A stretch of 64,000 bases of DNA, taken from the NCBI RefSeq assembly GCF_024521635.1, contig NW_026250405.1, forward strand, positions 496,001-560,000, in the 5' to 3' direction. This DNA is from Tricharina praecox (Eukaryota). Numbering within the stretch: the stretch's first letter is position 1; each line of letters begins with the position of its first letter. Both the position numbers and the translations under genes were made by a program. This document shows positions 7,655 through 57,921 of the stretch, in pieces. Below the pieces are notes generated by a model, which was given only the letters and a program-made list of their open reading frames with translations, made no database searches and had not been told where the DNA came from.

Positions 7655-8478
7655 CTTCGGGGAGGCTCCGAGGCGCGTGGATGTCACGAGCTATAGTAGA
7701 CTAGCGTCCTGATCGGGACAGGGACTTGGGCTGAACTGAGCCTGAGTTGAGTCTGATGATTTCCAGCTGAAGATGTCAATAGAGGCTGGGGATTCAGGTC
7801 CCGAGACAGAGATTCCTTCTTATCCACGACGATACTGATGCCCTCTTCCTTCATGGGTGGTCTTGTCGATTTATATGAGTAAGATTTCGGTTCTGCTGAC
7901 TTGGGTTCCGGTAAAGAAGTAGGAGGTATCTAGATCGAATAATATTAATCAAGAATGCGAACCGGGCAGATATGTTTAGAACAACTTTGGATTGGACGAT
8001 GATAGGAGCCTGAACCAGCATGTTGTGATTTCCTTACTCATGCTCACGAGGGAGTGGTTGAGGCGGGGGCTGTTTTGGTTGACAAGCGTGGCGATGGTCA
8101 TAGAGTGAGCAGTCTACTTTCACATTCGTTCCTGTCTTCTGCTAACTGGACGCTTCAGGAACCGGAGCTGTACAAACGAATGTAAAGCCAAAACACGGAG
8201 TGCGATTCGATGGATTGAACCAAACCCTTTGCCCTAAGATTTCCAAGGAAAGCCTCCGTGAAAGCACTAGTGCACCCCTTCGGTGTGTCTCACTTGAGCC
8301 GCGCGACACACGAAAGAGACACCGAGAGACAAGCAGCCTTGCGTCTTCCCAACTCTACTCGCGACAACAAACCCCCAACACGAAAACACGACACGACAAT
8401 CCCACCACCAGCGTCGCTCCTCCACCTCTCCCCATCCCACCCCGCGTCGTGCCTTCCAAAAAACAAAGCACAACCACG

Positions 8479-9168
8479 ATGTCATCACCGCACCCGCACG
8501 CACCGCCGACCAAAGTCGACCGCGCGCGCACCACCCCCTTCCTACTGCACCTCTACTACCGTCAAGGCGGCTTCCACCGCCTGGACGACTTCCGCAGCAC
8601 CAGCCAACCACGGGACTTCATCCAAATCTACACATGGCGAGACTGCACGCTACAAGAGCTCTCGATCCTCCTTTCCGACGCCCTCCCCGCCGTGTGCCCA
8701 CCGCGCTCGCGCTGCGGCTTCCGCCTCATCTTTGCCGACACGCGCCACGGCGGCACGCGGTACACGAGTAAGGACCTGGGCGCCGTGGGTGGCAGTGGAG
8801 GCGACGAGGGCGCCGCGAAAAAGACGTTGAGCGAAGTGCAGTTTGTTGTCGGCGACTGGATCGACGTCGCGGTTTATCCGGAAGGCCATGGGGGCGTTAG
8901 CGCGAGGGGTGGGTTTGCGGGCGGTAGGGGCGGTGTTCTGGGTCCGGGCAGGGAGAATGGGTTCGGAGGGTTTAAGGTTAGGGGAGCGGCGAGGGGTGGG
9001 TTTGAGGGACGCGTGGGCGCTGGTGGTGTGCCGAGTGGGGAGTGGAGACGTGGGGAGAAGGTGGAGGATTCGTTTGGAGGCACTGCAGCCCCACCGATGG
9101 GGATGGGACGTGGCTCCGGAGGGGGGCGGAGAGGCGGCGGCGGTGGAGGGAGGAGATATCACGATTAG
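8479..9168 (+). CDS. SAP18: Sin3-associated polypeptide SAP18 (ASAP complex / histone deacetylase complex subunit) with RGG-rich tail
   Basis: KVDRARTTPFLLHLYYRQGGFHRLDDF...QIYTWRDCTLQEL...KTLSEVQFVVGDWIDVAV matches the SAP18 ubiquitin-like fold. First in-frame ATG at 8479. Confidence 0.92.
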   Translation: MSSPHPHAPPTKVDRARTTPFLLHLYYRQGGFHRLDDFRSTSQPRDFIQIYTWRDCTLQELSILLSDALPAVCPPRSRCGFRLIFADTRHGGTRYTSKDLGAVGGSGGDEGAAKKTLSEVQFVVGDWIDVAVYPEGHGGVSARGGFAGGRGGVLGPGRENGFGGFKVRGAARGGFEGRVGAGGVPSGEWRRGEKVEDSFGGTAAPPMGMGRGSGGGRRGGGGGGRRYHD

Positions 9169-18919: not shown

Positions 18920-20075
18920 ATGTCAAAGCTACTCGACCCCAACGCCGGTATCAACAGCCATCCGCATCCAGGCTCGAAGTACGGTCCGGCGATTACCATT
19001 CCGCCCTCACCGGCGCCTACCACACGTTCGTTTGAAGTCGGCGACGACGACGATTTGATTAAGCCTCTGCAACCTCAGTCGCCAACTCTGAAGCCTACCC
19101 AGAATCCGACGCCAGCTCAGAAGCCAAAACAGAACATCGACCTCATCATGCGAGACATCGAACACGACGTAGCGGGATGCACATCTCCCAAGAACGGAAA
19201 GGGAAGCGCCTCGGGGAAGCCCAATAAGGGAGTCCAGTATTACGACGAGGTCTTCGGAGTGCGACAGTCGCCGAAGATACCGCAGACAGCCGGTATTTGT
19301 GTTGAGTTCAAGACGAATATGGTGGTGAGTTGATACCCAGTTTTCCTCCTACCCAATTCAGCGGGGGATTCACAGGGTTGCCGCTGCTGGGTTGCGTTCC
19401 GAAGCTTGTCACTTGCTTGTGTCGAAGCTGGGATTCGGTCAACCCCGCGATAGTATATCGGAATGTCGTGTGACACCTCGGGCCATGAAAAAGAAAGCTA
19501 ACCGTTGCTGGAAACCTGTTTAGCTTGAGGACGAGTTTCAATTCGCCATGATTCTTGGGGCTATGATCGCGACTCGATACAACCGCGAGCCGGAGCATAT
19601 CTGTGTGGTGGTGGATCACAACGCTTGCATGATGGTCGGCGGAACCTTTGACGCTGCGTATCTCATGACAATCACCTCAGTCACCATGATATCACCTGCA
19701 GTCAACAGACGGAACGCTGCCGTGTTCGCAGATTGGATCGAGTCAAATTCCACTATTCCGGCATGCCGTGGGTACATTCGGTTTGTGGATCCCCAGTTTT
19801 CCAACTTTGCTGTTGGGGGGAAAACGGTCCTGGGTACTATGGAGACGGAGGAGATCAAGAGGACCGGGTACGCGGAGAAGGCGAACATGATCCGACAAAA
19901 GAGCATCAAGAGGCAGCTGTCGAGAAAGGAACAGAAAGCGGAAAAGCTGGCGACCGCCGAACTGAAAGTGGACAGCGATGGACGGCCAACTAGCCCGTAC
20001 AATCGGATGCAGAAGAAGAGCATGAGCATGCTCAACATGTTTCTGCGAGGTCAACAGCAGCGTGGCACGACATAG
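18920..20075 (+). CDS. MIF/tautomerase-fold domain protein (fungal type with long N-terminal extension), 2 exons
   Basis: CVEFKTNMV|LEDEFQFAMIL...RYNREPEHICVVVDHNACMMVGGTFDAAYLMTITS...NRRNAA...RGYIRFVD...NFAVGGKTV; intron about 19324-19523 (GTGAGT...GCTAAC...TAG). Confidence 0.82.
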
Positions 20076-21499
20076 TCAGACCATCCGCTCAGGCTGTGAG
20101 ATTTATCTGACAGTGTCTATTGGTCAACTTTTGGGGACGTATGAGTTGGTTGTATCACCAATTGAGTTTACAATAACTGCCCACGAGTGATCTGTCAATC
20201 TATGGAATAGGACTATTACTATTCCAGATTCTGTACTGCCCTTCATTTGTTGCTTTCCATTTCATTTTTCCGATGGTTTTTTGAGAGGTTTTGGAACGGA
20301 GTTGTATCTTGTTTGTGTTTTTTTGTTCTTTGCTGGAATGCTTATCCGTTTTGGTTTTGGTTTTCCGTTTTCCATGTAATGGGTGCTGGTGCGTGAAGGG
20401 TTCATTTTCTTATACGAGGGGCATCGGAGTACATTTTGGAGGCTGTTACTTGGTGATTGTCAGTTCGGCGCTCGGTGGGAGCCTGCAGGTTTTCTACCTA
20501 CTTGTGTATATCAAGGGACGGTAATTAAGTATACGTGGAGTTCGGGTACATACTGCCATATGCAAAAGTGCCCCCCTCCGCAACCTGTTTCACTGGTGAT
20601 GATCATATCGTCCAGCCTGCTCTCGGTATGTTTTCAACAGAACGCCAGGATTTGGTTCAGTAATTTGAATCCTCCGTGCAAAAGAAGCTGTGTTTTGCTG
20701 AAGTGGTGAAGCAAAGGGGTGGGAAGTAAACTTCAGTTCCTCCATCTCCATCCCCGCCTTCCGTCACCTCTTGCCCTGCCAATGTTGTGGAGGTTCACAG
20801 TCCACGGGAACGTGCGGACGCCAGGACGATGAAACCTATAGGACAAGGCTACAACGGTTTCTCCCTCCCTCCAGCACTATCCCTACCAATCTAGAGTACG
20901 AACGGTCACCTACGTACTTTCGGTGGCCGGTACGATAGGTAGATTGCGATCCTGCGGGATTCCAATATCCAGGAATGCAGGTAGGCAAGGGCACTGTATC
21001 GACGATGTTGTATGGAAACAGGCTTTCCGGCTCGTGGTACTACGTTGTGCAAACGGAACGGTCGGATGTGGTGGTAGGTGTTTTCACGAGATTGTGAGTG
21101 ATATTCTGTGAATTGCTGTTGAGGGGGGTTTTGGGGGGGAGGTACATGTATCGAAAGGTGCCAAAGATGCTCGAGGCATGTGAAGCGTATTCACTTAAGG
21201 TCTCGGGGGGTATCCTATGCGGTATCACTCGTTCGGGTATCACTCGTACAACTTGTCATGTGGTGTGGTCGCGGTGATCATCGCGTCTCGCCTCGCCTCG
21301 CCTCGCGTTGCTGGCACTTGCCGGTTCACTGTACTCTACTCCACCAACCGCAAACATCGCAGCGCCCGAGAACTTGTCTCCCCCCCAGTTCGACCTCTAC
21401 GACGACCACTCTCCGCGACTACATCCGTTAGCTCCCTACGCATCCTCGAGTTCTCGTCGCACCCTCCCCACTAGTCACCACTACCACCCAGTTACCACT

Positions 21500-21841
21500 A
21501 TGTCCAGCACCGACGAAGTCCGAATCCCTCCAGCGCTGCTTCAGCGTCTAATCACAGAATTCATGGAAGACAAAAAGACGCGCATCTCACAACCGGCAGT
21601 CGACGCGCTTGGCGAATACTTCCGCACATTCATCCGCGAAGCGATCTGGCGGGCGGCGCAGAGCCGCAAGGGCGACGAAGACGACGAGGTTGGCGGGAGG
21701 GTTGTCGGTGGGGGAACGCTGTTTCTTGAGGTAAGGGCTATGTGTGGCGGAAGAAAGGGAAGGGACGAATGCTAAACCGGGGTGGGGCGACAGGTCGAGG
21801 ATATAGAGAAGGCTGCGCCGCAGCTCATGTTGGATTTCTAA
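21500..21841 (+). CDS. MHF2: Centromere protein X / Mhf2 (histone-fold, CENP-S/X complex), 2 exons
   Basis: IPPALLQRLITEFMEDKKTRIS...EYFRTFIREAIWRA...FLE|VEDIEKAAPQLMLDF*; intron 21731-21793. The C-terminal PQLxLDF is typical of CENP-X. Confidence 0.92.
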
Positions 21842-24209: not shown

Positions 24210-24317
24210 GGCAGGATGGCCGAGTTGGTTATGGCGCCAGGTTAAGGTCACCTTAATACAATCGTTTCGATTCCTGGTTCGGGAAACTGAGCGTGGGTTC
24301 AAGTCCCACTCCTGTCA
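24210..24317 (+). tRNA. tRNA-Leu(AAG) with intron
   Basis: Acceptor GGCAGGA/TCCTGTC+A, A box TGGCCGAGTTGG, anticodon stem CCAGG/CCTGG with TT-AAG-G, ~24 nt intron partly complementary to the anticodon, long variable arm, T arm GTGGG-TTCAAGT-CCCAC, downstream T8 terminator. Confidence 0.93.
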
Positions 24318-27300
24318 CTACTTCTTTTTTTTCCCCATGAACCATGAATACACGGCATCCCGTCGGCAAGCCCGAACGCAGCAAGCGGGTAGACTAGCGG
24401 TACGAATAGGGTTCAATATCTTTTCGAGGACTGCGTAGCATGGCGGAGCCACTGCAAGCTGTTGTGAGCGCCGGCGCGGAGGCGGGGAGTTTAGTAAGCC
24501 AAAGAAGCGGAAGGCTGAAGTTCAGATATACATATCGGAGCTATTCGCGGAAGAAAGCACTGCCCGGCTATACTGCGTTTCTTCTGCGGCGATGGAGCTT
24601 GCAGAGGAAGAGCGAGATGCAGGTGAGCTGTCACGGTGGCAAAGATGTGTGGCGGGTGTGCGCTCACGTAAGTTCTTATGTCATCCGGCCGTTGGCGGCG
24701 GGCGGCAACGGAGATTCCGCTAGGCGACTTCTAGAGTACTCGAATGGAACCTGGAGGAGACGGGATATGACAGATAGGTGTCATGGTTGGGAACGGCCGG
24801 GAACGGCCGAATGTAATGTGAAACAAAGCTCCGTGCGATGAGGGCTCAATGCCTGGGCTAGCACTCGTTTCCACGGGTTTTGGATTCCCTGCAACAGCGA
24901 GTTACTTAGGAGGAATTTCTCCCTTGACGAACGGGAGGAGACTCCGTTCCTTCCCAATCACTCCAGTATCCTCCAGCAGTTCAGCAGGAAAAACGATGTC
25001 AGCTAAGAATACCCATTGCGCGGTAGACGGCGGTGTGCCCTAGATACGGCCCGCTAGGGAGATTATGTGGTGATACTAACTGAGAAACAATGCTTCCCTA
25101 TAGAGCCACGCCGGAAAGGTCAAACGAGAGGGTAGGCGAGGAAGATCGAAAAGCGAAGAGGGCGGTTATGCGGGGAGCAGACAAGGGCAGAACGGGGGAA
25201 GGAGGAGCAGGAAAGGGAGAGTAGCAGATGAAGAGAAGGAAAGTAGGAGGCAGGATTCAGTGTGTGCATGCTTGCGTGGTGTGACATGAAGGAAGAGGGT
25301 ACAGTTGATCTTATGCAGTAAGCTTGAAACCCTAAAGGACCGAGGTCGACTTGTGGAGGCGAGGGAAGGGTGCATAAGAGTGGTCGGTGAGCAGGAGAAG
25401 GTGGCTATATCTCTTTAGCTCATACTTTCCTCCCATCTGATGCGAGTAGATCCGCTCAATTGCTTCACCAACGTCTGCATAATGTTCACCATCACCACCG
25501 TCATCATGAGTCCAACCGCCCGCCCTATGCCCGGTTTTATGTCTTTACGTTGTTTAGCTCCATCCCACTCCACTTTCAACTTCATCAGCCCCACCGCTCC
25601 ACCGCCCACCTTCGATTTGGACGTCATTGTGTGTGACTCGATTATCTCCAGTCCTTTCAGGCCGTCTTAACAATCTATGTCGCAAGGTAAGCTATGTCCT
25701 TAGATAAGTGACGAGACATGAGTCAAGGCGAGAAGTTCTCTGGGATAATGCGCGATCTTCGAGTCTACGAACTTTCAACTCATGTGAGTCTGTCAGCATG
25801 GAGTCAAAAACAATCCAAGTCAATCCGTGTCGACAATGCCATATTTCAACCGACCTTACTAGCAGAAACTCAAGTATCATATGCATCAAACGACTTTGTT
25901 GAGAGCTGAAGTTGCACGATAGTCGTCTTTGACAGCTGGTATGTAGATCCCATTGATAATTACACGGCAAGTTCCGGAGGCCAATGGGAGTCGAGGTATC
26001 AGTGCTACCATGTGTTGACACCATGTTCCGCCAGAACCATATGTAAGCACTACCGCACACTATATATCCACAGTGATGGATACCGACCACACAATTATAT
26101 ATTGCTTTATATTCGTCCGTTTGCTGGGCACAGTGTATGTTCTGATGCGGGACTTCATTCAGCTGTACATATTACAAACAATTGCCAGTCATCAATGCAC
26201 TTCTCCATACACCGTCGACTATCCAGTGCAGGGCAGTAACGATACCTGTAGGTTTTGGGAGCCATCTCGGTCTAATGTGTCGAAAACCAGTATGATGGCT
26301 TCCCGGATTACCAGACATGAAACGGAACCGGGGATACTTAGTACTTAGTATGTACCGTCAGATTCTGTGACTCTAAGAGCAGCTCACGGACGGTAAATGA
26401 CTAGTTTCTTCCCCACCCACATCTCCCGTCTTACCTTGCGGCTATCTGGTGTGCACGGCTGTCGGGTTCTCGCTTGTAGACCAGGCCATTGGGGCCATAA
26501 AGCACGCTCTGAGCATGACTAGTAGCGATCTGCCCCAGGAACGAACATGTCAGCCATCAGACATGCAACTTCATTATTCACCCTCGCCTTGCTGAATGCT
26601 GGTGCACCCGCTTTGCCGGGTGCCCTGCTTACGGGCTGCCAACCGAGATCCTCATAGACGAGCAGTGAGGAACAGCTGGACCAGACCAAGAAGATTGCCG
26701 CAGGGAAGAAAGTGATCACCGCTATCAGTAAGGCAGGATGGGGGCTAAGTAGAGTAATTCTGCTAGGCACAGAGGTTGTAAGCACTTCACTAGAGAACCA
26801 GCCTTTCCCGTTCGATGGGGCTATCACCAAACTACCTAGAAAACTTCGGCCGGCGATAGCTCCGAGCAAAACATCTACATACAAGGAAAGCTCAATGCTG
26901 ATGGAGCATAGAGTTAGGCATTCAGCACAGCGGCGACCTATCGTTGTTATGCCCGATTTCTGGTAGCCAGGCAGTGGTACATATCACATATCTGCCAGGT
27001 AATAAAAAGTCTGTATTGCCGTGTAAATTTTGGCCCTGGGTGACGCGCGCACGCGCAACCGCCGGTGAAACTTAGGCTAGAACTTGCTCATGGCGTTTTC
27101 TCGATCGTTTGATCTATCAAGAAACTCGTGAAACATACTCGGGTTTTTACCGGGCTTTGCCGAAAATAGACAGGCGCCTTGACCCCGCTGTGCTACCTCG
27201 AGGCAACCATCCCCAGTTATGTAGGCCGCCCACCGGCGAAGCTCCCTTGGAGTTTTACCGGGTCTTGAACATAGAGATGTTCACGTGCAAACTCGAGGTG

Positions 27301-29810: not shown

Positions 29811-32452
29811 ACCAATCATTTGGTGCCAATCCCTCATGGTTCAATTTGGGGATACCCGGGCTGCGTTGGCCACTGTAGCTTCTGGAATCTTCACTTTTGA
29901 CATAGCCATGTCAGGGACTAGCTGGGCGCCGAGGCACCTGTGGAGCGAAACGTGATCCTACGAATTTCTTATGTTTTCTTTCAGTCTTTGCCTTTTCTGT
30001 TTACAGCTGGGTGGGGTTAAGCCCCATTGATATGGCTGGTTACTTGGAACAGATTTTCCTATTGGATGCCGAGTTTTGTTTTGCTTGTTTCTGATTTTAC
30101 AATGTTTTATCTGTCGATGCAATACAATGGAATTCGAATTCTTCCAAACCCAAACCCTGTTTCTCCGTAATTCGTGGGCGAGTGAACCCGTGTTTCAACT
30201 ACAGACCTCGACGTCGGTTCCGAAATTCGCAGGTGGGTGTTCGAGATCTTGGTAGGTGTGGCGTAGTTTTGCGGATCTCGCATTAGGTACGGCCCGGGGT
30301 TCGGACCCGCATAACGAATGGGTGGAACCGACACATCATTGTGGCGCCGTCATCGTGTGCACCGCCCCGAAGAAGCGAGCGCAACCCGGTATCCGCATGG
30401 ATCCGAGCTGATCCCTGGGTTTGGTGGGTGGGTGTCTGCCACTCTAGAGTAGAGTAGAGATCTAGAAGAGCGGATTAGCAAGTATGTACGATTGAAGTTA
30501 TTCTGGTGGCCGTGGCGCTTATTTTGGCGGGGGGACAAGGTGGGGATCATAGGCGTTTATGCCCTGCCGGTGACCGACAAAGCTGTGCATACCCGCACCT
30601 GCGCGGCCTGACATACATACATGCAACCTTATTGCTTTCGTGTACCGTGAGCATTGCAAATCTACCGACCCGCGGTATGTGCAATATACATCCCTCATGC
30701 TATTCTGATACCTCACGTTTCCCTTAATGACAAATCTAAGTAGTTACATATACACCGACTTTGATTCCAGAACCACAAATACTGTAATTCAACTCCACAT
30801 CCACCGTCACCGCATTTATTTCCGTGTTGGCATAGGTAGATCCACGAGGCGAGCGCGGGCAAGAGCGCGGGCGCGGGGGACGGAAATATCTACATACCGT
30901 GCGCGTCTAATTTTAAGGCTCCCCCCCCCGGCGACGGCTGTGGTTAGCGAGAATCGGAAACAAGTGTGGCTGGACTGTGGAGAGGCTCGTTCGGCTATGC
31001 AGAGTACTATAGTTAAGGCCAGCCACGTTCGTTTTGGGGGCCGATACGTAGATAGCGGCGCGATTTTGGTGATTGGAAAGGAGACCGGGGAAGAGAAGGA
31101 GTCTCGAAGACGAGAATGAGAAATCGGGATTTCGTGGTAGTGTGGCTATGGCAGAAGGATATTTTTTTGCTTGTAGAAGGCTTGATCTCTAAAAAAACTC
31201 CTCCTCTGACAAGTTGGCGAGCAATCCGGCATTTCCTGCTCGGTCGCTGGAACTGTACTCGGGAGACTCTACAAAGAAACACATGATGTCACTCGAACGT
31301 CAAGATATGAGCCAACGTCCTTGAGAGTCAGTTTCACGTTCGGGTTTCTTGTCTCTGCCAATATTTTCTAGTTCGCGCTTTTAGTCACATGGCTATGGTC
31401 AATGATGCTGCCCGCAGACGTCTCCGGTTACCTAGTTCCCATAGTTCTAGATTGCCAATGTCGTGTCATTTCTCACCTGGGTCAGCATCACTCGTCCTTA
31501 GTATGTACCTTACCCGAACGGCCGACCGACCGACTGAAAGAGCCACCTTACTCGGTGGTGAAAATCTGGGGGGTGTCGGCCGACGTTAGAAGCGCATGGT
31601 GACGATCCGGACCCGAAACGCCCGCCCAGCCACCGGTGGATCCGTAGGGTAAGGCAACATGGGTGAATCTCAAGCACCCGAAGTTTGTGAAAGAAGAAGT
31701 TGTATCGGATATGATCTAAAGGGCCGTAGAGCCTATGGAAAGTGATGTGTGGCGTAAGCTGCGATCCGTGCCGCGCACAGTCAGACCCTGCAAAAGTGAC
31801 TCAATGCCCAATGGTTGCCACCAACGAAGGCCCGAGCCACTCTTGTTATGTAAGTCGCGGTAAAAAGAATAGGATGAAGATTACGGCATCATCTAGAAGT
31901 ACGGTAACGGTTTCACCCTCTTTCTACTACTGTAAAATACGTACCTAAGCAACTTGTAAACTCTCGGAGTACTATATGAGTGATGCATCAGCCACACTAC
32001 GCTGTTATCATCATACATACCGTCAGATTGGTGAAGAAATAAAATGGCTCCACCACTACTGCTGACCAACCAACCGTCAAGACTTTGACGGCGGAAGCGG
32101 GAGGCAGCTTTCGCATTTTTCCGACCTCTAAAACCGTCTGCCATCACAAACTAGTCCTCACCCCCTCTCCTGGTAGTGACAGTGGCTGAGGATGACGTGG
32201 AACGCAAGGAAATCGCAGACAGGGCTCATCTAGAGTTTTAATTTTCCCCTCAAAGGCACACAGATCAGCTCGTGTACCGTAATCCATCAACTGCAGGGAC
32301 TTTCAGAAATCGAAGGACGGCGAAGGATAACGATTCTTGCCAGCTGTGTGACGACTAATATCCTGTTAGCCTCGCTGTGGATATAGTACTGGCCCGCCCC
32401 GAGAAACCCACTGTCTCGCCGCGAATAACCTGCTGGCCTTACCATGGTTACC

Positions 32453-33885
32453 GCGCTGTCTTTATCGTTCGTTCAAGCGCAGAAAGACGTCGCATCAGAT
32501 CCATTCAAAGCACACGGCATGTCGTTCGTTCGTTCAACGTAGACAGTATTTTTGTGGCGGAGCGTGTCCGTCGTGGGGGCACCTACCACTTTATAATTTT
32601 CGAATTGATATTTCCAGCACGGAAAAAACCCCGCGTGGTCTAGTGGTCTAGGCCACGCAATCGGCGAGGGGAGTTGAGGGAAAGGTCCAGGTTCAACCCT
32701 GGTAGAAGAACTTTCTATTCAGCTCTTGGGGTTTCCAAGCCACCTGCCGCGGGTGGTGATGGTTTTTGTTTTTGTTTTCGGCGTGACGGAGGGAGCATTA
32801 GCCGGATATCACTCGGTCGTAGCCGAGTGATCCGAGCCAGGGGTACGCTGTGAGTGAAGAAACCGTTCTAATCGAACTCATCCCTTCTGTTTGTCAGTGA
32901 CCACCCACACTTCGTATCTCCACGCTGGAGACTGCACGGCGCTGTCATACCTACAGCCCCGAGACTGTGTGAAAGCCCGCCGTGACCGACTTGGAGCCAC
33001 CGCTGTCGACCTTCTCTGAGCCACGAGCGATCTCCCACACACCGCCCCTAAGCAAGTAGGTCGTTTACGAAACTTCATGGTGAGTCGACGTCGGAGATGA
33101 AGCCAGTAAGCGTTTAGATGGATGCCAATATGAAAGTACCGTCACGATTACTTAAATATTCCGGCACATACCCTCACAGCGAGTCACTCGCAATGAGGTA
33201 TGTACCGGTTAGGCGCGACCACCTGCATCCATGGAGGAGCCACAACGAGCCGAGTCGCCCGCGGACTAACCGATAGCGAATTTCTCGGGCAGTGAACGGG
33301 AAAAAGTGCGTGTACATTGCAATGATCTACTCTAGATAGGCCACCAGCAATCTATGGTAAAACAAACGGTCTGTGGTCGGCGATAAGCGGGCATCCTCCC
33401 GGCCGTCCGCCAACTTCCCTGGTTGGTGGAGGGTAATACTGCTGCCTAGGCATGACGTTTCGCTTCTTCGCCGGTATGTAGATCACTCTGCTGCCCGTGT
33501 AAATGTGGGATTGTTCATTTGATGTGACGATATGTCAGCACCGCATCATGCTCGGTGGATCGCAGGACCGATGATGCAGGGTACATGCCGTTGGTCGACA
33601 ACGACATGAATGTGAACTGGGGATGTATATGCGATTGAGCATTGGACATTCATTATTGCTGTAAGGATTGTACCCCGCGGAAATGTTGAAAGAGAAGGCT
33701 CTTCGGCGACGGGGACAGGCGTAACTAACACCCACTGAATGGGGCATAGTTAGCGCGTCCCCTGATGCAAACCACTATCTACCGTTCATGCATGTAGACT
33801 ACCTCACCTTGCCGGCGCTGTCAACTTTCAAGGCTCGGTGAGCCCGAATGCTCAGCAATGTAGTCACAATACCACTGCTGCCGCC
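32453..33885 (+). repeat. Dispersed non-coding repeat, copy 1 (block order B-C-spacer-A)
   Basis: By-eye alignment: 32453-32817 to rc(57345-57704); 32822-33153 to rc(56286-56624); 33698-33885 to rc(57704-57921). Confidence 0.85.
32616..32767 (+). ncRNA. Candidate tRNA-derived RNA polymerase III transcription unit / SINE-like structured RNA, copy 1
   Basis: TTTATAA at 32590-32596, A box TGGTCTAGTGG 32636-32646, B box GGTTCAACC 32690-32698, several hairpins, TTTTT run from 32763; second homologous copy at 57435-57574. 5' end is estimated. Confidence 0.62.

Positions 33886-42853: not shown

Positions 42854-42888
<35 letters not shown>
42854..42888. repeat. Poly-C/poly-G homopolymer of about 35 nt
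   Basis: Direct reading. Confidence 0.95.
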
Positions 42889-44829: not shown

Positions 44830-47800
44830 ACGGCAAATCGTGGCGGGAGGTCGGTTGATCGGTCAGCGTGTGCGCCGGAGCAGGAGTAGGAGGCGGTGGA
44901 GGAAAAGGAAGGAAGATCACCCAACCATTTCACAACGTTTGAACTTTGGGTAGGGCGCTATAAACGTACTCTTACGGTACATCCGTGACGATGGTTCTAC
45001 AAGCCCTACCAGCCCGGTTTGCAGCTGGTCGGCTGGCCAACGGACAGAAATACAGATAGACAACGAGGTCACTGGAGATTCAAGAACTGCCAGCTAGGTG
45101 ATCTGATTTGCTGTGCTCGAATATTCGTTTGTGAGCGGGGGCCGGGGGTAAGACGTCGACGATGGACCAGCACTTCTAATGTCTGCCGCCAAACACAGTG
45201 ATCTGCGGCAGTCATACTCCTCTTTCTCCCCCTGCTGCTGCTGCAGGCCATGAGTGTGTCGAGTGTCTCCCCTCATCGACGGCTGCATTACAAAGAATGA
45301 AGGCTGTCAATCTTCAGTGTGTATGCCTAGTACGCCCAGCCTAAATATGCATCATAGTTACTACGGCACGCACACATTTCGTGTCTCGACTCTCCAGACG
45401 AAGCCGGCCCGCGATCATGGGGACTCCCGCCATCATCATCGCCAGCTGCTGCTGCTGCATCATAAGCATCATACGCATTACCTCATCATAAGCATCTTGT
45501 TTCCCTAGGCGGTATAGCGCATTAGTAGCCAGAGAGCAGAAGACTGAAGTTCTAAAGACAGATCCTCGTAAGCGGAAAAGCAGCCACCGACTCGCCTTTG
45601 GGCCTTTGGCTGCGTTGCTAAGTGCTACTTCTGGATCATAGATATATTCCATCTTTAGAATCATCGAAGAAGTCCATCCGACTGCGCGAGCGTTCCAATA
45701 TCACCTCGAGACTCAAGCTTTGAACCCAGTCATGTCTATGCCACTGCACCGGGCACGAAGGTGATGATGATAATGATGATGCACCCTGCTTAGCCATCCA
45801 TATCTTCTTTTTTCTTCTGTATTTCCTTCCTGCTCTTCCTTTTCTTTTTCCTCTTCTTCTCTTTTTCTTTTCTTTCCTGTCTGTTTGTTTGTTTATTTTC
45901 CACTGCAAGTGTGCACTGCACCGCACCGCGATTGCCCGCTCTGCGTGCTCTGCTGCGTGCTCTGCGCCTCGTCAGTGGATGGATGAATAAGAATAAATAA
46001 GAACGGCCCTACGAATGGCGGGGGCGTGTGAGCGTGTGAGCGTGTGTGGGTGGGTGGGTGGGTGGGTGGGTGTTACGCATGGTTTGCTCGTCGCCGGTTA
46101 GGGTCCAATAAAAATCCCTCTCTCTCTCTCTCTCAACGACCCAACGAGTCATCGGACGGACGGTAAACGGTAAATGGTCAACCCCGCCCGCCGGATTCAA
46201 TCAGGTCGAAAATAGAGTATACACCCAACCTTCATCTCCCGATGATGAGTCTGATATGAAGTGTATGAGAGGGTGTTGTGCCTGCTCTTATTGCGTGCCA
46301 TTCTCGAAACTGTTTCTTTTCTTCTTTCTTTCTTCTTTCTTTCATTTGAGATTCCGTGTTCTGCCGTTCACAGGTGGCCGTGCTGGTGGGTGCTGGTAGG
46401 TGCTGGTGTTGTAGGGAATTTCATCATCAAATCTTGCGCAGCCTTGTTATTTCACCGACATCCATCTGCCTTTCACTTCCTCGCTTCCTCGCTTCCTTGA
46501 TAGGTGGAGCGCGTGTGATAGGTGGACTACATACGAAGCTAGGTACAGGTACTTGGTATGCGGAGACGATCCTCACGACGGATAGGTATGTGTATGTAGG
46601 GTGGCAGATACATCTCTACATGCTTCCACTACTACTACAACTAGTGGCAACTCCTCCACATGATGTACCGCATCATGTGGGAGCCACCATCCATCCAGCC
46701 AGCCAGCCAGCCCACCAGCCTACTTTTCCGCAGCGGTCCCTCCCTGACCTGCCCCGCGAACTGATTGGGCAGTCCCTAAGCCACAAAGCCGCAAAGGGGG
46801 GAAGCTCGGTCTCGATGAGAGAGTATCATACGATAAACTTTGGGCGGGTGGCAAATCTAACCACTCCAACCACTCTACTTACTGCGCGCGTTCGCAAAGG
46901 AGAAGGTGCGTGGGTGTCCTTGTGAGCACGTTTTCGTGTTTGCTTTTTCCTTGGAGAAGCTACTTTGTAAGAGTATGTAAGAGTACTACATACGGTATCT
47001 AACTATACCGTAGTCCGCAGTTCCCAGCGAGCGAGCGAGCGCCGAGCAAGCAAGCGATATCGGTTGAAAGTAGAGTAGGTACTCTACTTTAGAGTAGAGG
47101 CGTGCGCAGAAGGCTCCCACCCCCAGGACTCGCCACACTGACGAATAGCGACGAGGAAGCCGCGCAAGGCTTCGCGGGTCGGCTTGATTGGCAATCTATC
47201 GAGAAACCTGGCTCCGTTGTCGTCACGGTTGCCGGCGAACGTTGACGCAGGAGGGAGGGTCCTGCGACTCTGCGAGGACATCCGGCCTTCCAGATCTCGA
47301 CGCCACGGCCTACGGGACCCGCATTCAGGCCGGCGGCGCGGGGGGAAGGGGAGGGTATCGCAGTCTAGGTATCCAACGACGATGTTTAACAGCGCCTGTT
47401 ATACCTATATCCAAGGACTTACTCCCGCAACCTTGTCTCGACTCTGGGGATTCCTTGAGCCGGGTTGTGGGGAGAGAGTGGGCCACGGAGTTGCTGGCAG
47501 CGAGTGGCGGGGGTGGGCCGTGGCCATGGGTAAAGATAGGCTTCATGCAAGACGCGCCCGCGCAGAGGCATACTGGGAGAGAGTCTGGGACAGCACTGGT
47601 ATGTAGTTGTGTACGAGTACATCCTGTAACAAAGGATCCTTTCAGTTAGACACCGACGACGGCTGACGATCATGCCTAGGGCTGCCTCCCCCCGCTCCCC
47701 CTTTGGTGGCGGCAAGTTCCCCTGCCTTTCTCTCTATCTCGCTTGTTTGCACGGCCGCGCGAGGCTTCGCATTCTCGAGAAATGGGAGGTGGAGGGGGGC

Positions 47801-49991: not shown

Positions 49992-50110
49992 GTGGTGGTG
50001 GTGGTGGTGGTGGTGAAATGTGGTGGTGGTAAATATGGTGGTGGTGGTGGTGGTGGTGGTGGTGGTGGTGGTGGTGAAATGTGGTGGTGGTGAATATGGT
50101 GGTGGTGGTG
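49992..50110. repeat. Compound (GGT)n microsatellite with duplicated interruptions
   Basis: GGT runs interrupted twice by GAAATGT and RAATAT, a higher-order duplication. Confidence 0.9.
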
Positions 50111-56285: not shown

Positions 56286-57921
56286 AAGTAATCATAACGC
56301 TGCTTCCATATGAGCACCCTTCCAACTGCACACCGGCTTCATCGTCGACGTCGACTCACCGTTAAATTCTGCAAACGTCCTGCTTGCTCAGGGAGGGTGT
56401 GCTGGAGATTGCTCGCGGCTCGGAGGAGGTCGATACCTAGCGGTGGCTCAGTCGGTCACGGCAGGGTTTCACACGGTCTCGGAGGGCGTAGGTATGATAG
56501 TGCTGAGCAGTCCCCAGCGTGCGTGGGAACCCGTAACATACGTGGCCACTGACAAGCAGAATTGGTGAGTCCAATTGGAACGGTTTCTTCGCCACAGCGT
56601 ACCCCCCGGCTCGGATCACTCGGCCGTTGGCGGCCGTACGTGACGTCGTCTAGAACTGTCGCTGTTGACGGCTGGAAGGGAAGGTGGGGTATGGTAGCAG
56701 GGTCGCCATAGTCTACTAGTAGAAAGGCCGTAGGTATGTGACAATAAATTGATGTTTTCTCACTCTTGTCGCTGTTGACAGTTTTGCGGACGGCTCATTT
56801 GACAACACCCTTCCAGGCCGGAGGCGGATCGAGAAGAGAGCACACACAGAAGAAAGAGGAGATATGGAGGTTGATCGTCTATTCGGTAGATGATGAAAGA
56901 GAGAGAAGAAGAAGAAGAAGGAGAAGGAGAAGAATAAGAAGAAGAATAAGAATAGGAAGAAGATTAAGAAGAAGACGACCCTGCCATGCCAGCCAACGTT
57001 GGTTGCCACCAACTTCGATGCCCACTACTAACCACATTTGCTTCCTCTCGCCGATGACTCCTCCATCGCTCCGCGCTCCGCATAACAGAACCATCGTCAT
57101 CTGGCCACGGCTCCCCTTTTACGGCTAGCCAGTGCTCTTACTGTTCCCATTGGTATAAGACACTGGTCATCACGAGCTTTCCAAGAAAGTTTCCGGATAT
57201 AGTGTTCTAACCGAGTATTCCAACAGTCTTTAGAGTATATACATTCGATCTTAAGGCAAATTATTAAGATCATGGCAAGAACCAAGTACTTCTTGTGGAT
57301 TCTCTCCTCCACAGCCGGTAGCGTAAAACGTATCACGTGATATTACCGAGTGATATCCATATAACCAGTGCTCCCTCCATCACGCCGAAACAAAAAACAA
57401 AAACAAAAACAAAAACAAAAACAAAAACAAAAACAAAAACCACCCCCGGTGGGTAGCTTGGAAGCCCCAAGAGCTGAGTCTTTCACCCCGGTTTGAACCG
57501 GGAGCTTCCGCCCAACTCCCCTTGCCGATTGCGTGGCCTAGACCACTAGACCACGCGGGGGTTTTTTCCGTGCTGGAAATATGAACTTGATGCTTATAAA
57601 GTGGTGGTTTCCCCCCGCGACGGACACACTCTGCCACAACGCTGCAAGCGAACAATATGCCGTGTACTTTGAATGCATCTGATGACGAACGATAAAGATA
57701 GCGCAGCAGCAGCAGTATTTTGGCTTCATTGCAGAGCATTCGAGCTCACCGGGCCTTGACATAGCCGGTGAGGTGAGGTAGTCTACCTAAACACATAGAT
57801 GGTAGGTGGTTTGCGTCAGTGGACGAGCTACCTTAGGTACCTACTCTAGTAAGTCACCATAAGACGAGACCGAGAGCCCGCCGGAGCGATAGTTAGTGAT
57901 GCGCCTCCGTTGCCAAAGAGC
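56286..57921 (-). repeat. Dispersed non-coding repeat, copy 2 (block order A-B-[722 bp]-C)
   Basis: Reverse-complement homology to 32453-33153 and 33698-33885; 56624-57345 has no counterpart in copy 1. Confidence 0.85.
57435..57574 (-). ncRNA. Candidate tRNA-derived Pol III transcription unit / SINE-like structured RNA, copy 2
   Basis: TTTATAA at 57600-57594, A box TGGTCTAGTGG, B box GGTTCAAACC, same hairpins as copy 1, followed by a (TTTTTG)n tract at 57388-57440. Confidence 0.62.

Follow-up and report, generated by a model that had tools for sequence, protein, structure and literature searches.

The stretch analyzed here, called the window below, comprises 64,000 nucleotides (nt) of the Tricharina praecox genome (NCBI RefSeq assembly GCF_024521635.1, contig NW_026250405.1, positions 496,001 to 560,000 of the forward strand). 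It holds two copies, 25 kb apart, of a repeat whose core spans ~240 bp. The core of copy 1 occupies 32576..32817 on the plus strand and that of copy 2 occupies 57345..57614 on the minus strand. A first-pass annotation, made from the sequence alone, had described the two as a structured RNA gene of the RNA polymerase III (Pol III) type with just two diverged copies. The reading that we prefer, and regard as probable, is that both belong to an old, diverged, high-copy interspersed repeat family of a soil ascomycete with the architecture of a short interspersed nuclear element (SINE), and that the window came to hold two copies through local duplication.

From 5' to 3', the core of copy 1 comprises a TATA region, an A-box hairpin, a variable center with the B-box hairpin, a conserved block (block 2), a closing hairpin, a T-rich hexamer repeat, and a 3' segment. 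The TATA-like ACCACTTTATAA lies ~40 nt upstream of the A box and was read directly in both copies (32585..32596 on the plus strand and 57594-57605 on the minus strand). The A box, TGGTCTAGTGG (32636-32646), is held in an 11-bp hairpin at 32633..32658, and the 26 nt of this hairpin, GCGTGGTCTAG-TGGT-CTAGGCCACGC, recur as an exact match in copy 2 (57531-57556, minus strand). With up to 3 mismatches allowed, the hairpin matches the 64-kb window at these two places only, and none of 100 shuffles contains a match. The B-box hairpin reads CCAGG-TTCAAC-CCTGG in copy 1 (32687..32702, with the B box at 32690-32699) and CCCGG-TTCAAA-CCGGG in copy 2 (57487-57502). Block 2, TCAGCTCTTGGGGTTTCCAAGC, lies at 32719..32740 (57456-57477 in copy 2) and is predicted to pair with GGGGAGTTGA (32668-32677); the closing hairpin, CCACCTG-CCG-CGGGTGG in copy 1, lies at 32740..32756 (57440-57456 in copy 2). 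The T-rich hexamer repeat, (TTTTTG)n, has ~2.7 units in copy 1 (32763..32778), where it is a candidate Pol III terminator or simple-repeat tail, and 8.7 units in copy 2 (57388..57439; Tandem Repeats Finder, period 6, 97% matches). Past this T-run stands the 3' segment, CGGCGTGACGGAGGGAGCA...GGATATCACTCGGT (32779..32817; 57345-57387 in copy 2), which belongs to the repeat in many copies. The core is preceded by a leader (32445..32575 in copy 1 and 57615..57704 in copy 2) that is common to both window copies and to a minority of the other copies (depth, 32 to 62). Homology between copies 1 and 2 begins at 32452 within the leader, and two metagenome contigs begin aligning at 32445 and 32448, preceded by 458 and 186 unaligned letters, respectively. 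A profile built from both copies and run against the window with nhmmer recovered only those copies, its other five rows having E values of 0.11 to 4.6.

All that the first-pass annotation had read from the letters was borne out by this description. Direct reading and alignment agree on the shared ACCACTTTATAA and on a near-identical block of 58 nt, the 11-bp A-box hairpin is exact in both copies, and the CTTGG-N5-CCAAG hairpin, the GC-rich closing hairpin, and the T-runs were all found as given there. The proposed Pol III type 2 layout likewise holds, in that an A box, a B box, a T-run, and an upstream TATA are all present. When the window was searched for A- and B-box consensus sequences at tRNA-like spacing, four sites were returned, whereas 200 random windows held 0.11 such sites on average and at most 3. 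These sites are a real tRNA-Leu gene, the two copies of the repeat, and a fourth site at 45717-45796 on the minus strand. The fourth site has neither tRNA-like features nor an Rfam match, lies beside a purine-rich tract, and is probably due to chance. The tRNA-Leu(AAG) gene (24210-24318, plus strand) has a 24-nt intron and a T8 terminator, scores 46.9 bits in Rfam, and is recovered by ARAGORN only with introns allowed. Unlike the repeat, it has no canonical TATA ~30 nt upstream.

As for the extent of the similarity between the two copies, the shared stretch is present as annotated, while the homology proves far wider than had been stated, joining 32452-33153 on the plus strand to 57704-56286 on the minus strand at 77 to 85% identity overall. 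The first part, 32452-32817 with 57704-57345, takes in the leader and the core; in BLASTN, 32493-32778 is identical to the matching part of copy 2 at 226 of 288 positions, and the 3' segment to 32817 at 38 of 46. The second part, 32822-33153 with 56624-56286 (264/342 identical, 77%), lies beyond the core and is low-copy (depth, only 7 to 14). Since this low-copy flank is also matched, the window copies lie in one local inverted duplication, and both are parts of a single inverted segmental duplication of ~0.7 to 1.4 kb whose arms are 23 to 25 kb apart. A third piece, 33748-33884 on the plus strand, matches 57833-57703 on the minus strand (105/141 identical in BLASTN). In copy 1 it is found ~0.9 kb downstream of the repeat, whereas its copy 2 partner immediately precedes the repeat; this displacement points to a rearrangement or a further repeat module.

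In copy 2, an additional 720 bp (56625-57344), containing a (TCT)n tract at 56904-56975, stands between the repeat and the partner flank (56286..56624, minus strand). The extra segment sits exactly between GGATATCACTCGGT and GCCGAGTGATCC, where copy 1 has a gap of 5 nt and a 9-bp palindrome; it is bracketed by the inverted 13-mers GGATATCACTCGG and CCGAGTGATCC, which stand 5 nt apart in copy 1. The difference may reflect an insertion into the palindrome or a deletion in copy 1. A Helitron was considered and set aside, the 3' palindrome being split by the 720 bp in copy 2.

A local duplication also bears on an argument that had been raised against a SINE, namely, that the TATA region and the sequence beyond the T-run are shared by the two copies. 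Because one insertion would have been duplicated with its flanks, the TATA, the leader, and the post-T-run sequence are common to the window copies, and this sharing is uninformative on how the element spreads; moreover, the same parts also occur in the unit of other copies. The window copies share minority letters of the family as well, with A at 32610, where G makes up 402 of the family depth of 511, and C at 32656, where T makes up 422 of 649. Together with the low-copy flanks, these shared letters mark the window copies as sisters.

Divergence between the sisters is unevenly spread. Over 335 columns of a global alignment, the two copies differ by 50 substitutions and 7 indel events, while the 58 nt at 32608-32665 contain no substitution and one C indel. 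A substitution-free run of that length arose in 36 of 20,000 shuffles of the observed differences; with indels also counted as differences, the longest identical run shrinks to 37 nt, a length that 780 of 20,000 shuffles attained. The central tract at 32677-32716, adjoining the substitution-free block, has 11 substitutions and a 7-nt indel. Repeat-induced point mutation is not indicated as a cause of divergence, either between the copies (31 transitions and 20 transversions) or at the level of the family (59 transition and 35 transversion places in X1, the first of the metagenome runs described below).

The abundance of the repeat was gauged with contigs from two soil-metagenome DNA runs (X1 and X2) of one study, the only study whose public runs contain the stretch. 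These contigs were aligned to 32000-33400 at ≥80% likeness; the X1 contig set totals 1,954 million letters. The aligned contigs, 265 in X1 and 154 in X2, pile up on 32564-32798. By identity class (99% and above, 95 to 99%, 90 to 95%, and under 90%), they number 26, 38, 90, and 111 in X1 and 16, 18, 44, and 76 in X2. Partial fits account for 129 X1 contigs and 86 X2 contigs, and the aligned share that runs on into unlike sequence is 0.24 in X1 and 0.27 in X2. Summed depth is 6.5 to 6.95 in X1 and 0 to 3 in X2 over the single-copy flanks. It reaches 246.5 in X1 and 82.5 in X2 at 32564-32610, 871.6 and 355.4 at 32611-32657, 426.4 and 169.1 at 32658-32704, 1109.3 and 559.3 at 32705-32751 (the deepest bin, that of block 2), and 771 and 288.8 at 32752-32798. 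The limits of the copy 1 core follow from the X1 depth in these bins and from four of the listed contigs, which end at 32817 to 32821. Divided by flank depth, the summed depth gives values of 37 to 165 by bin and up to ~250 at 32750; this is a metagenomic quantity and not a copy number.

Each of the X1 repeat contigs listed has a depth of 4.95 to 8.09, near that of the single-copy flanks. Because the window itself holds two copies, because the depth per contig is about that of the flanks, and because the X1 contig set is too small for ~100 assembled fungal genomes, we infer that most copies belong to a single genome or to very closely related ones, at some 100 to 250 genome equivalents. These data go against the view of a unique structured-RNA gene with just two diverged paralogous copies, which we now hold to be highly improbable. 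Its support consists of the shared flanks, the 58-nt substitution-free core, and one double compensatory change in the B-box hairpin. Yet the core is carried by the 265 and 154 contigs just described, many with other continuations, and the local duplication accounts for the shared flanks. Many copies with unrelated flanks, which the annotation itself had taken to be contrary to its reading, are thus what the depth on 32564-32798 reveals.

A conserved noncoding RNA gene with one or two copies in each of many soil fungi could build a similar pile, since summed depths in a metagenome include those of other organisms; the X2 repeat contigs, moreover, are deeper (3.4 to 7.7) than the window flanks in that run. 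Such a gene would, however, require ~60 to 250 fungal genomes, each at a depth of 4 to 8, within the 1,954 million letters of X1. The leader and the 3' segment, which lie beyond an RNA-sized core, are also shared, and the window alone already holds two copies. In the JGI metagenome contigs, the 20-mer of the A-box hairpin was found at only three loci, none of them similar outside the 20-mer and all attributed to chance. We accordingly rate a gene common to many fungi as very unlikely. The same 20-mer and a 21-mer of block 2 each gave no match in GTDB genome contigs or in IMG/VR. As ORFs may have been called over other copies, two open reading frames (ORFs) of the repeat were also used as queries: an 81-aa antisense frame gave no protein-database candidate, and a 121-aa sense frame from copy 2 shared words with 2,789 candidate proteins, not one of which reached an E value of 0.01 or better.

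Across the family, the best-kept parts are 32600-32665, the block of the A-box hairpin, and ~32716-32760, which comprises block 2 and the closing hairpin. The center around the B box is variable. At position 32689, 13 X1 contigs have C and 15 have G in place of A; at position 32700, 7 have G and 16 have A in place of T. Copy 2 has the family-majority letter at 32584, 32597, 32607, 32745, 32746, and 32750 and one of the common family variants at 32685, 32689, and 32700. The patchy divergence between the window copies suggests gene conversion among copies of the repeat. This qualifies the double compensatory change in the B-box hairpin: the two forms, CCAGG/CCTGG and CCCGG/CCGGG, are indeed seen, but because the tract 32677-32716 exists in at least three family versions, the switch from A-T to C-G may have been acquired as one block, by inheritance or conversion, and not through two independent mutations.

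Depth climbs from the 5' to the 3' side, from 40 at 32574 to 177 at 32584, 293 at 32597, 511 at 32607, 649 at 32656, and 1510 to 1691 at 32745-32750. This rise fits what is expected of 5'-truncated retro-copies. Toward the 3' side, most loose ends of other copies break within (TTTTTG)n, at 32767-32774. A stretch upstream of the leader, 32282-32375 on the plus strand, is moderately repeated as well (summed depth of 24 to 38 in X1 against 6.5 in the flank). Some contigs join it directly to ~32442, skipping 81 nt, so that repeat modules are combined differently in different copies.

The annotation had also proposed that the repeat encodes a structured RNA, and predicted folding agrees. The sense strand of copy 1 has a minimum free energy (MFE) of -67.7 kcal/mol (z, -5.06; 0/200 shuffles as good) and that of copy 2 an MFE of -64.5 kcal/mol (z, -3.48; 1/200). 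The antisense values are -50.4 kcal/mol for copy 1 (z, -3.10; 1/200) and -52.8 kcal/mol for copy 2 (z, -2.87; 2/200), so that sense folds better than antisense in both copies. In a predicted consensus fold of 37 pairs, one pair is changed on both sides, three are changed on one side, and none is broken; this tally is weak evidence, the structure having been derived from the same two sequences that it compares.

As expected beforehand, no known RNA family fits either copy. Rfam 15 at gathering thresholds gave a single match over the window, the tRNA at 24210-24317. With E values up to 10 admitted, 32300-33000 (701 nt) gave no match, and a search over 161 nt gave four noise matches (8 to 13.8 bits, against thresholds of 36 to 80). 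Nor is the repeat a tRNA, in keeping with the annotation: it has no cloverleaf, the predicted folds differ from one, and RF00005 gives nothing even at E values up to 10. The repeat shares with nuclear tRNA genes (RF00005) the A and B boxes at tRNA-like spacing, hairpins that resemble the D and T arms, and a downstream T-run. It differs from them in lacking the cloverleaf, in a T loop of 6 nt instead of 7, and in a "D arm" that is an 11-bp hairpin. The A and B boxes are tRNA-like, and the head of the repeat may resemble the D-arm region of eukaryotic tRNA-Glu/Pro. The evidence thus supports a Pol III-type, structured element that belongs to no known RNA family. No RNA run was among the public runs listed for the stretch, and the study's one metatranscriptome (X3), with 122 million letters, had no contig matching 32000-33400, which is evidence neither for nor against transcription.

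Conservation and folding together raise the question of function. Dispersed 5S rRNA genes occur in some filamentous fungi, and the repeat could by comparison be a dispersed, functional, multicopy Pol III gene family in which the TATA, A box, B box, and terminator are under selection for a ~145-nt structured RNA. Conservation across the family is indeed best in the TATA, in the block of the A-box hairpin, and in block 2, the sense folds of both copies are strong and no pair is broken between them, and the B-box hairpin seems to be kept in three versions, namely, A:T, C:G, and a shifted CTGGG/CCCAG. The shifted version is deduced from the similar numbers of contigs with G in place of A at 32689 (15) and with A in place of T at 32700 (16), two changes whose linkage was not seen directly. 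Against such a family, identity to copy 1 lies between 80 and 95% for most copies (<95% for 201 of the 265 X1 contigs), and alignment of the center often fails because its sequence is too divergent or has been replaced; of the 15 joints listed, 8 fall inside the core and skip parts of it. Divergence and loss of the center indicate repeat-type decay rather than purifying selection on ~100 genes, and no Rfam family fits. We consider a functional gene family improbable.

The interspersed repeat with SINE architecture that we prefer has to be reconciled with several observations that weigh against it. In many copies, the repeated unit appears from sequence to comprise the upstream TATA, the leader, and ~40 nt past the T5 tract. 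The A/B-box head is hence not at the 5' end of the unit, the upstream TATA and leader being common to other copies, and (TTTTTG)n is in many copies not terminal, a conserved segment of ~40 nt following it. The consensus of loose ends of other copies before 32611 retains the TATA region and reads ACTTTATAAT, and consensi before 32576-32585 still resemble the leader of the window. At 32779, past the T-runs, the depth is still 340, four of the listed contigs reach 32817-32821, and loose-end consensi behind 32767 and 32774 resemble the 3' segment. Since a transcript that starts downstream of a TATA cannot carry it, an amplified TATA is unexpected; likewise, ~40 nt past T5 within the repeat implies that T5 does not terminate here or that this RNA is not the form in which the element moves. 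To these points are added that summed depth of metagenome contigs, to which other organisms contribute, is not a copy number and that no reverse transcriptase or long interspersed nuclear element (LINE) was found among the 79 window ORFs of ≥130 aa. A tRNA origin is likewise conjectural, as the Rfam models for tRNA, 5S, and signal recognition particle RNA do not match the repeat; ARAGORN by default finds nothing in either copy and, when relaxed, makes one weak call in each, differing in kind and place.

The breadth of the repeated unit favors the main rival, a repeat that spreads at the DNA level (a mobile element that is composite or resembles a miniature inverted-repeat transposable element [MITE], or part of a larger one) and merely contains a tRNA-like module resembling a Pol III promoter, copied along with the TATA, the leader, and the post-T-run segment. 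In its favor, the unit spans the TATA region, a leader from ~32445, and a 3' segment to 32817. Its modules are joined variously between contigs (15 joints listed, e.g., 32360 to 32442 and 32471 to 32600), and its 3' end, GGATATCACTCGG, faces the inverted CCGAGTGATCC, with 5 nt between them in copy 1 and, in copy 2, 720 bp. Fungal MITEs and other nonautonomous DNA transposons, of which mimp in Fusarium is an example, are likewise short, noncoding, and high in copy number and are copied as whole units, promoter-like parts included. Unlike MITEs, the repeat has no terminal inverted repeats: in neither copy does an inverted pair of ≥9 nt join the two ends of the unit, and the inverted pairs present (four per copy) are all internal except for the 3' palindrome of copy 1. 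No transposase was found among the 79 ORFs, whose only Pfam matches are SAP18, MIF, CENP-X, and a subthreshold leucine-rich repeat. The depth gradient toward the 3' side and the simple-repeat tract, which are not MITE features, fit retroposition better. On balance, a DNA-level or composite repeat seems unlikely, while remaining the main rival. A solo long terminal repeat was set aside on inspection by eye: TG...CA inverted termini are missing at 32445-32455 and 32817, position 32817 is not followed by a TGG-type primer-binding site, and the copy 2 leader is not preceded by a polypurine tract.

For the preferred SINE-like repeat, the following course of events can be proposed. An internal Pol III type 2 promoter, with its A box in the 11-bp hairpin and its B box in the 5-bp hairpin, would start transcription some 10 to 20 nt upstream of the A box. 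The element body would comprise ~145 structured nt plus a (TTTTTG)n tract of variable length, and the RNA would fold into a conserved structure of several helices. A reverse transcriptase acting in trans may then insert new copies of master elements into the genome, with most copies decaying after insertion. One such insertion would have been duplicated together with ~0.4 to 1 kb of flank in a local inverted duplication, so that the window copies would not be independent insertions. The 58-nt block next to a hyperdivergent center could reflect patchy gene conversion, constraint on the promoter-hairpin block, or both.

In SINEBase, a SINE is defined as a short interspersed repeat with ≥100 copies and a simple-repeat tail, and a SINE head as ≥60% identical to tRNA, 5S, or 7SL RNA over ≥60 nt (PMC3531059). 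The repeat is short (<1 kb), interspersed, and nontandem, and its copy number probably falls within that definition. Fungal examples (PMC5063351) include MgSINE of Magnaporthe (~100 copies, 472 bp), Foxy of Fusarium oxysporum (~160 copies), and AfuSINE2 of Aspergillus fumigatus (140 to 493 bp), of which AfuSINE2-1a ends in ACT repeats. The repeat resembles these elements in being a short, interspersed ascomycete repeat with a copy number inferred here to be on the order of 10^2. Like them, it has A and B boxes within the element, a body that bears no relation to tRNA, and a 3' simple-repeat tract of variable length. It differs, in a comparison made by description, in that its unit adds an upstream TATA, a leader, and ~40 nt past the terminator-like T tract.

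For annotation, the consequence is that the repeat should be masked and not called an RNA gene. It is a SINE-like repeat not previously catalogued, of an ordinary kind for a genome, and matters little beyond annotation. An amplified unit that carries its own TATA and post-T-run sequence is nonetheless unexpected of a plain Pol III retro-copy and, if confirmed, would bear on the spread of Pol III units that need an upstream TATA. In a nonclassical variant to which we give little credence, a self-contained Pol III cassette has been multiplied about a hundredfold together with its external promoter, and the ~145-nt RNA is selected in many copies. If true, this would mean either that a dispersed family of functional noncoding RNA genes is missing from Rfam or that Pol III genes can be moved by a novel route.

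Elsewhere in the window, three ORFs on the plus strand contain recognizable domains: a SAP18-domain ORF at 8146-9165 (E, 1e-35), whose nearest Atlas clusters are ascomycete; a MIF-domain ORF at 19524-20072 (E, 2e-9); and a CENP-X-domain ORF at 21278-21772 (E, 5e-14). These domains establish the host as a eukaryote, in line with the intron in the tRNA-Leu gene, and the Atlas neighbors suggest an ascomycete. Simple sequence is represented by an uninterrupted run of 35 C at 42854-42888, by a (GTG)n tract at 49992-50110 that forms two 61-nt units with 98% matches, and by GGT/CCA-rich low-complexity tracts that recur across the window.

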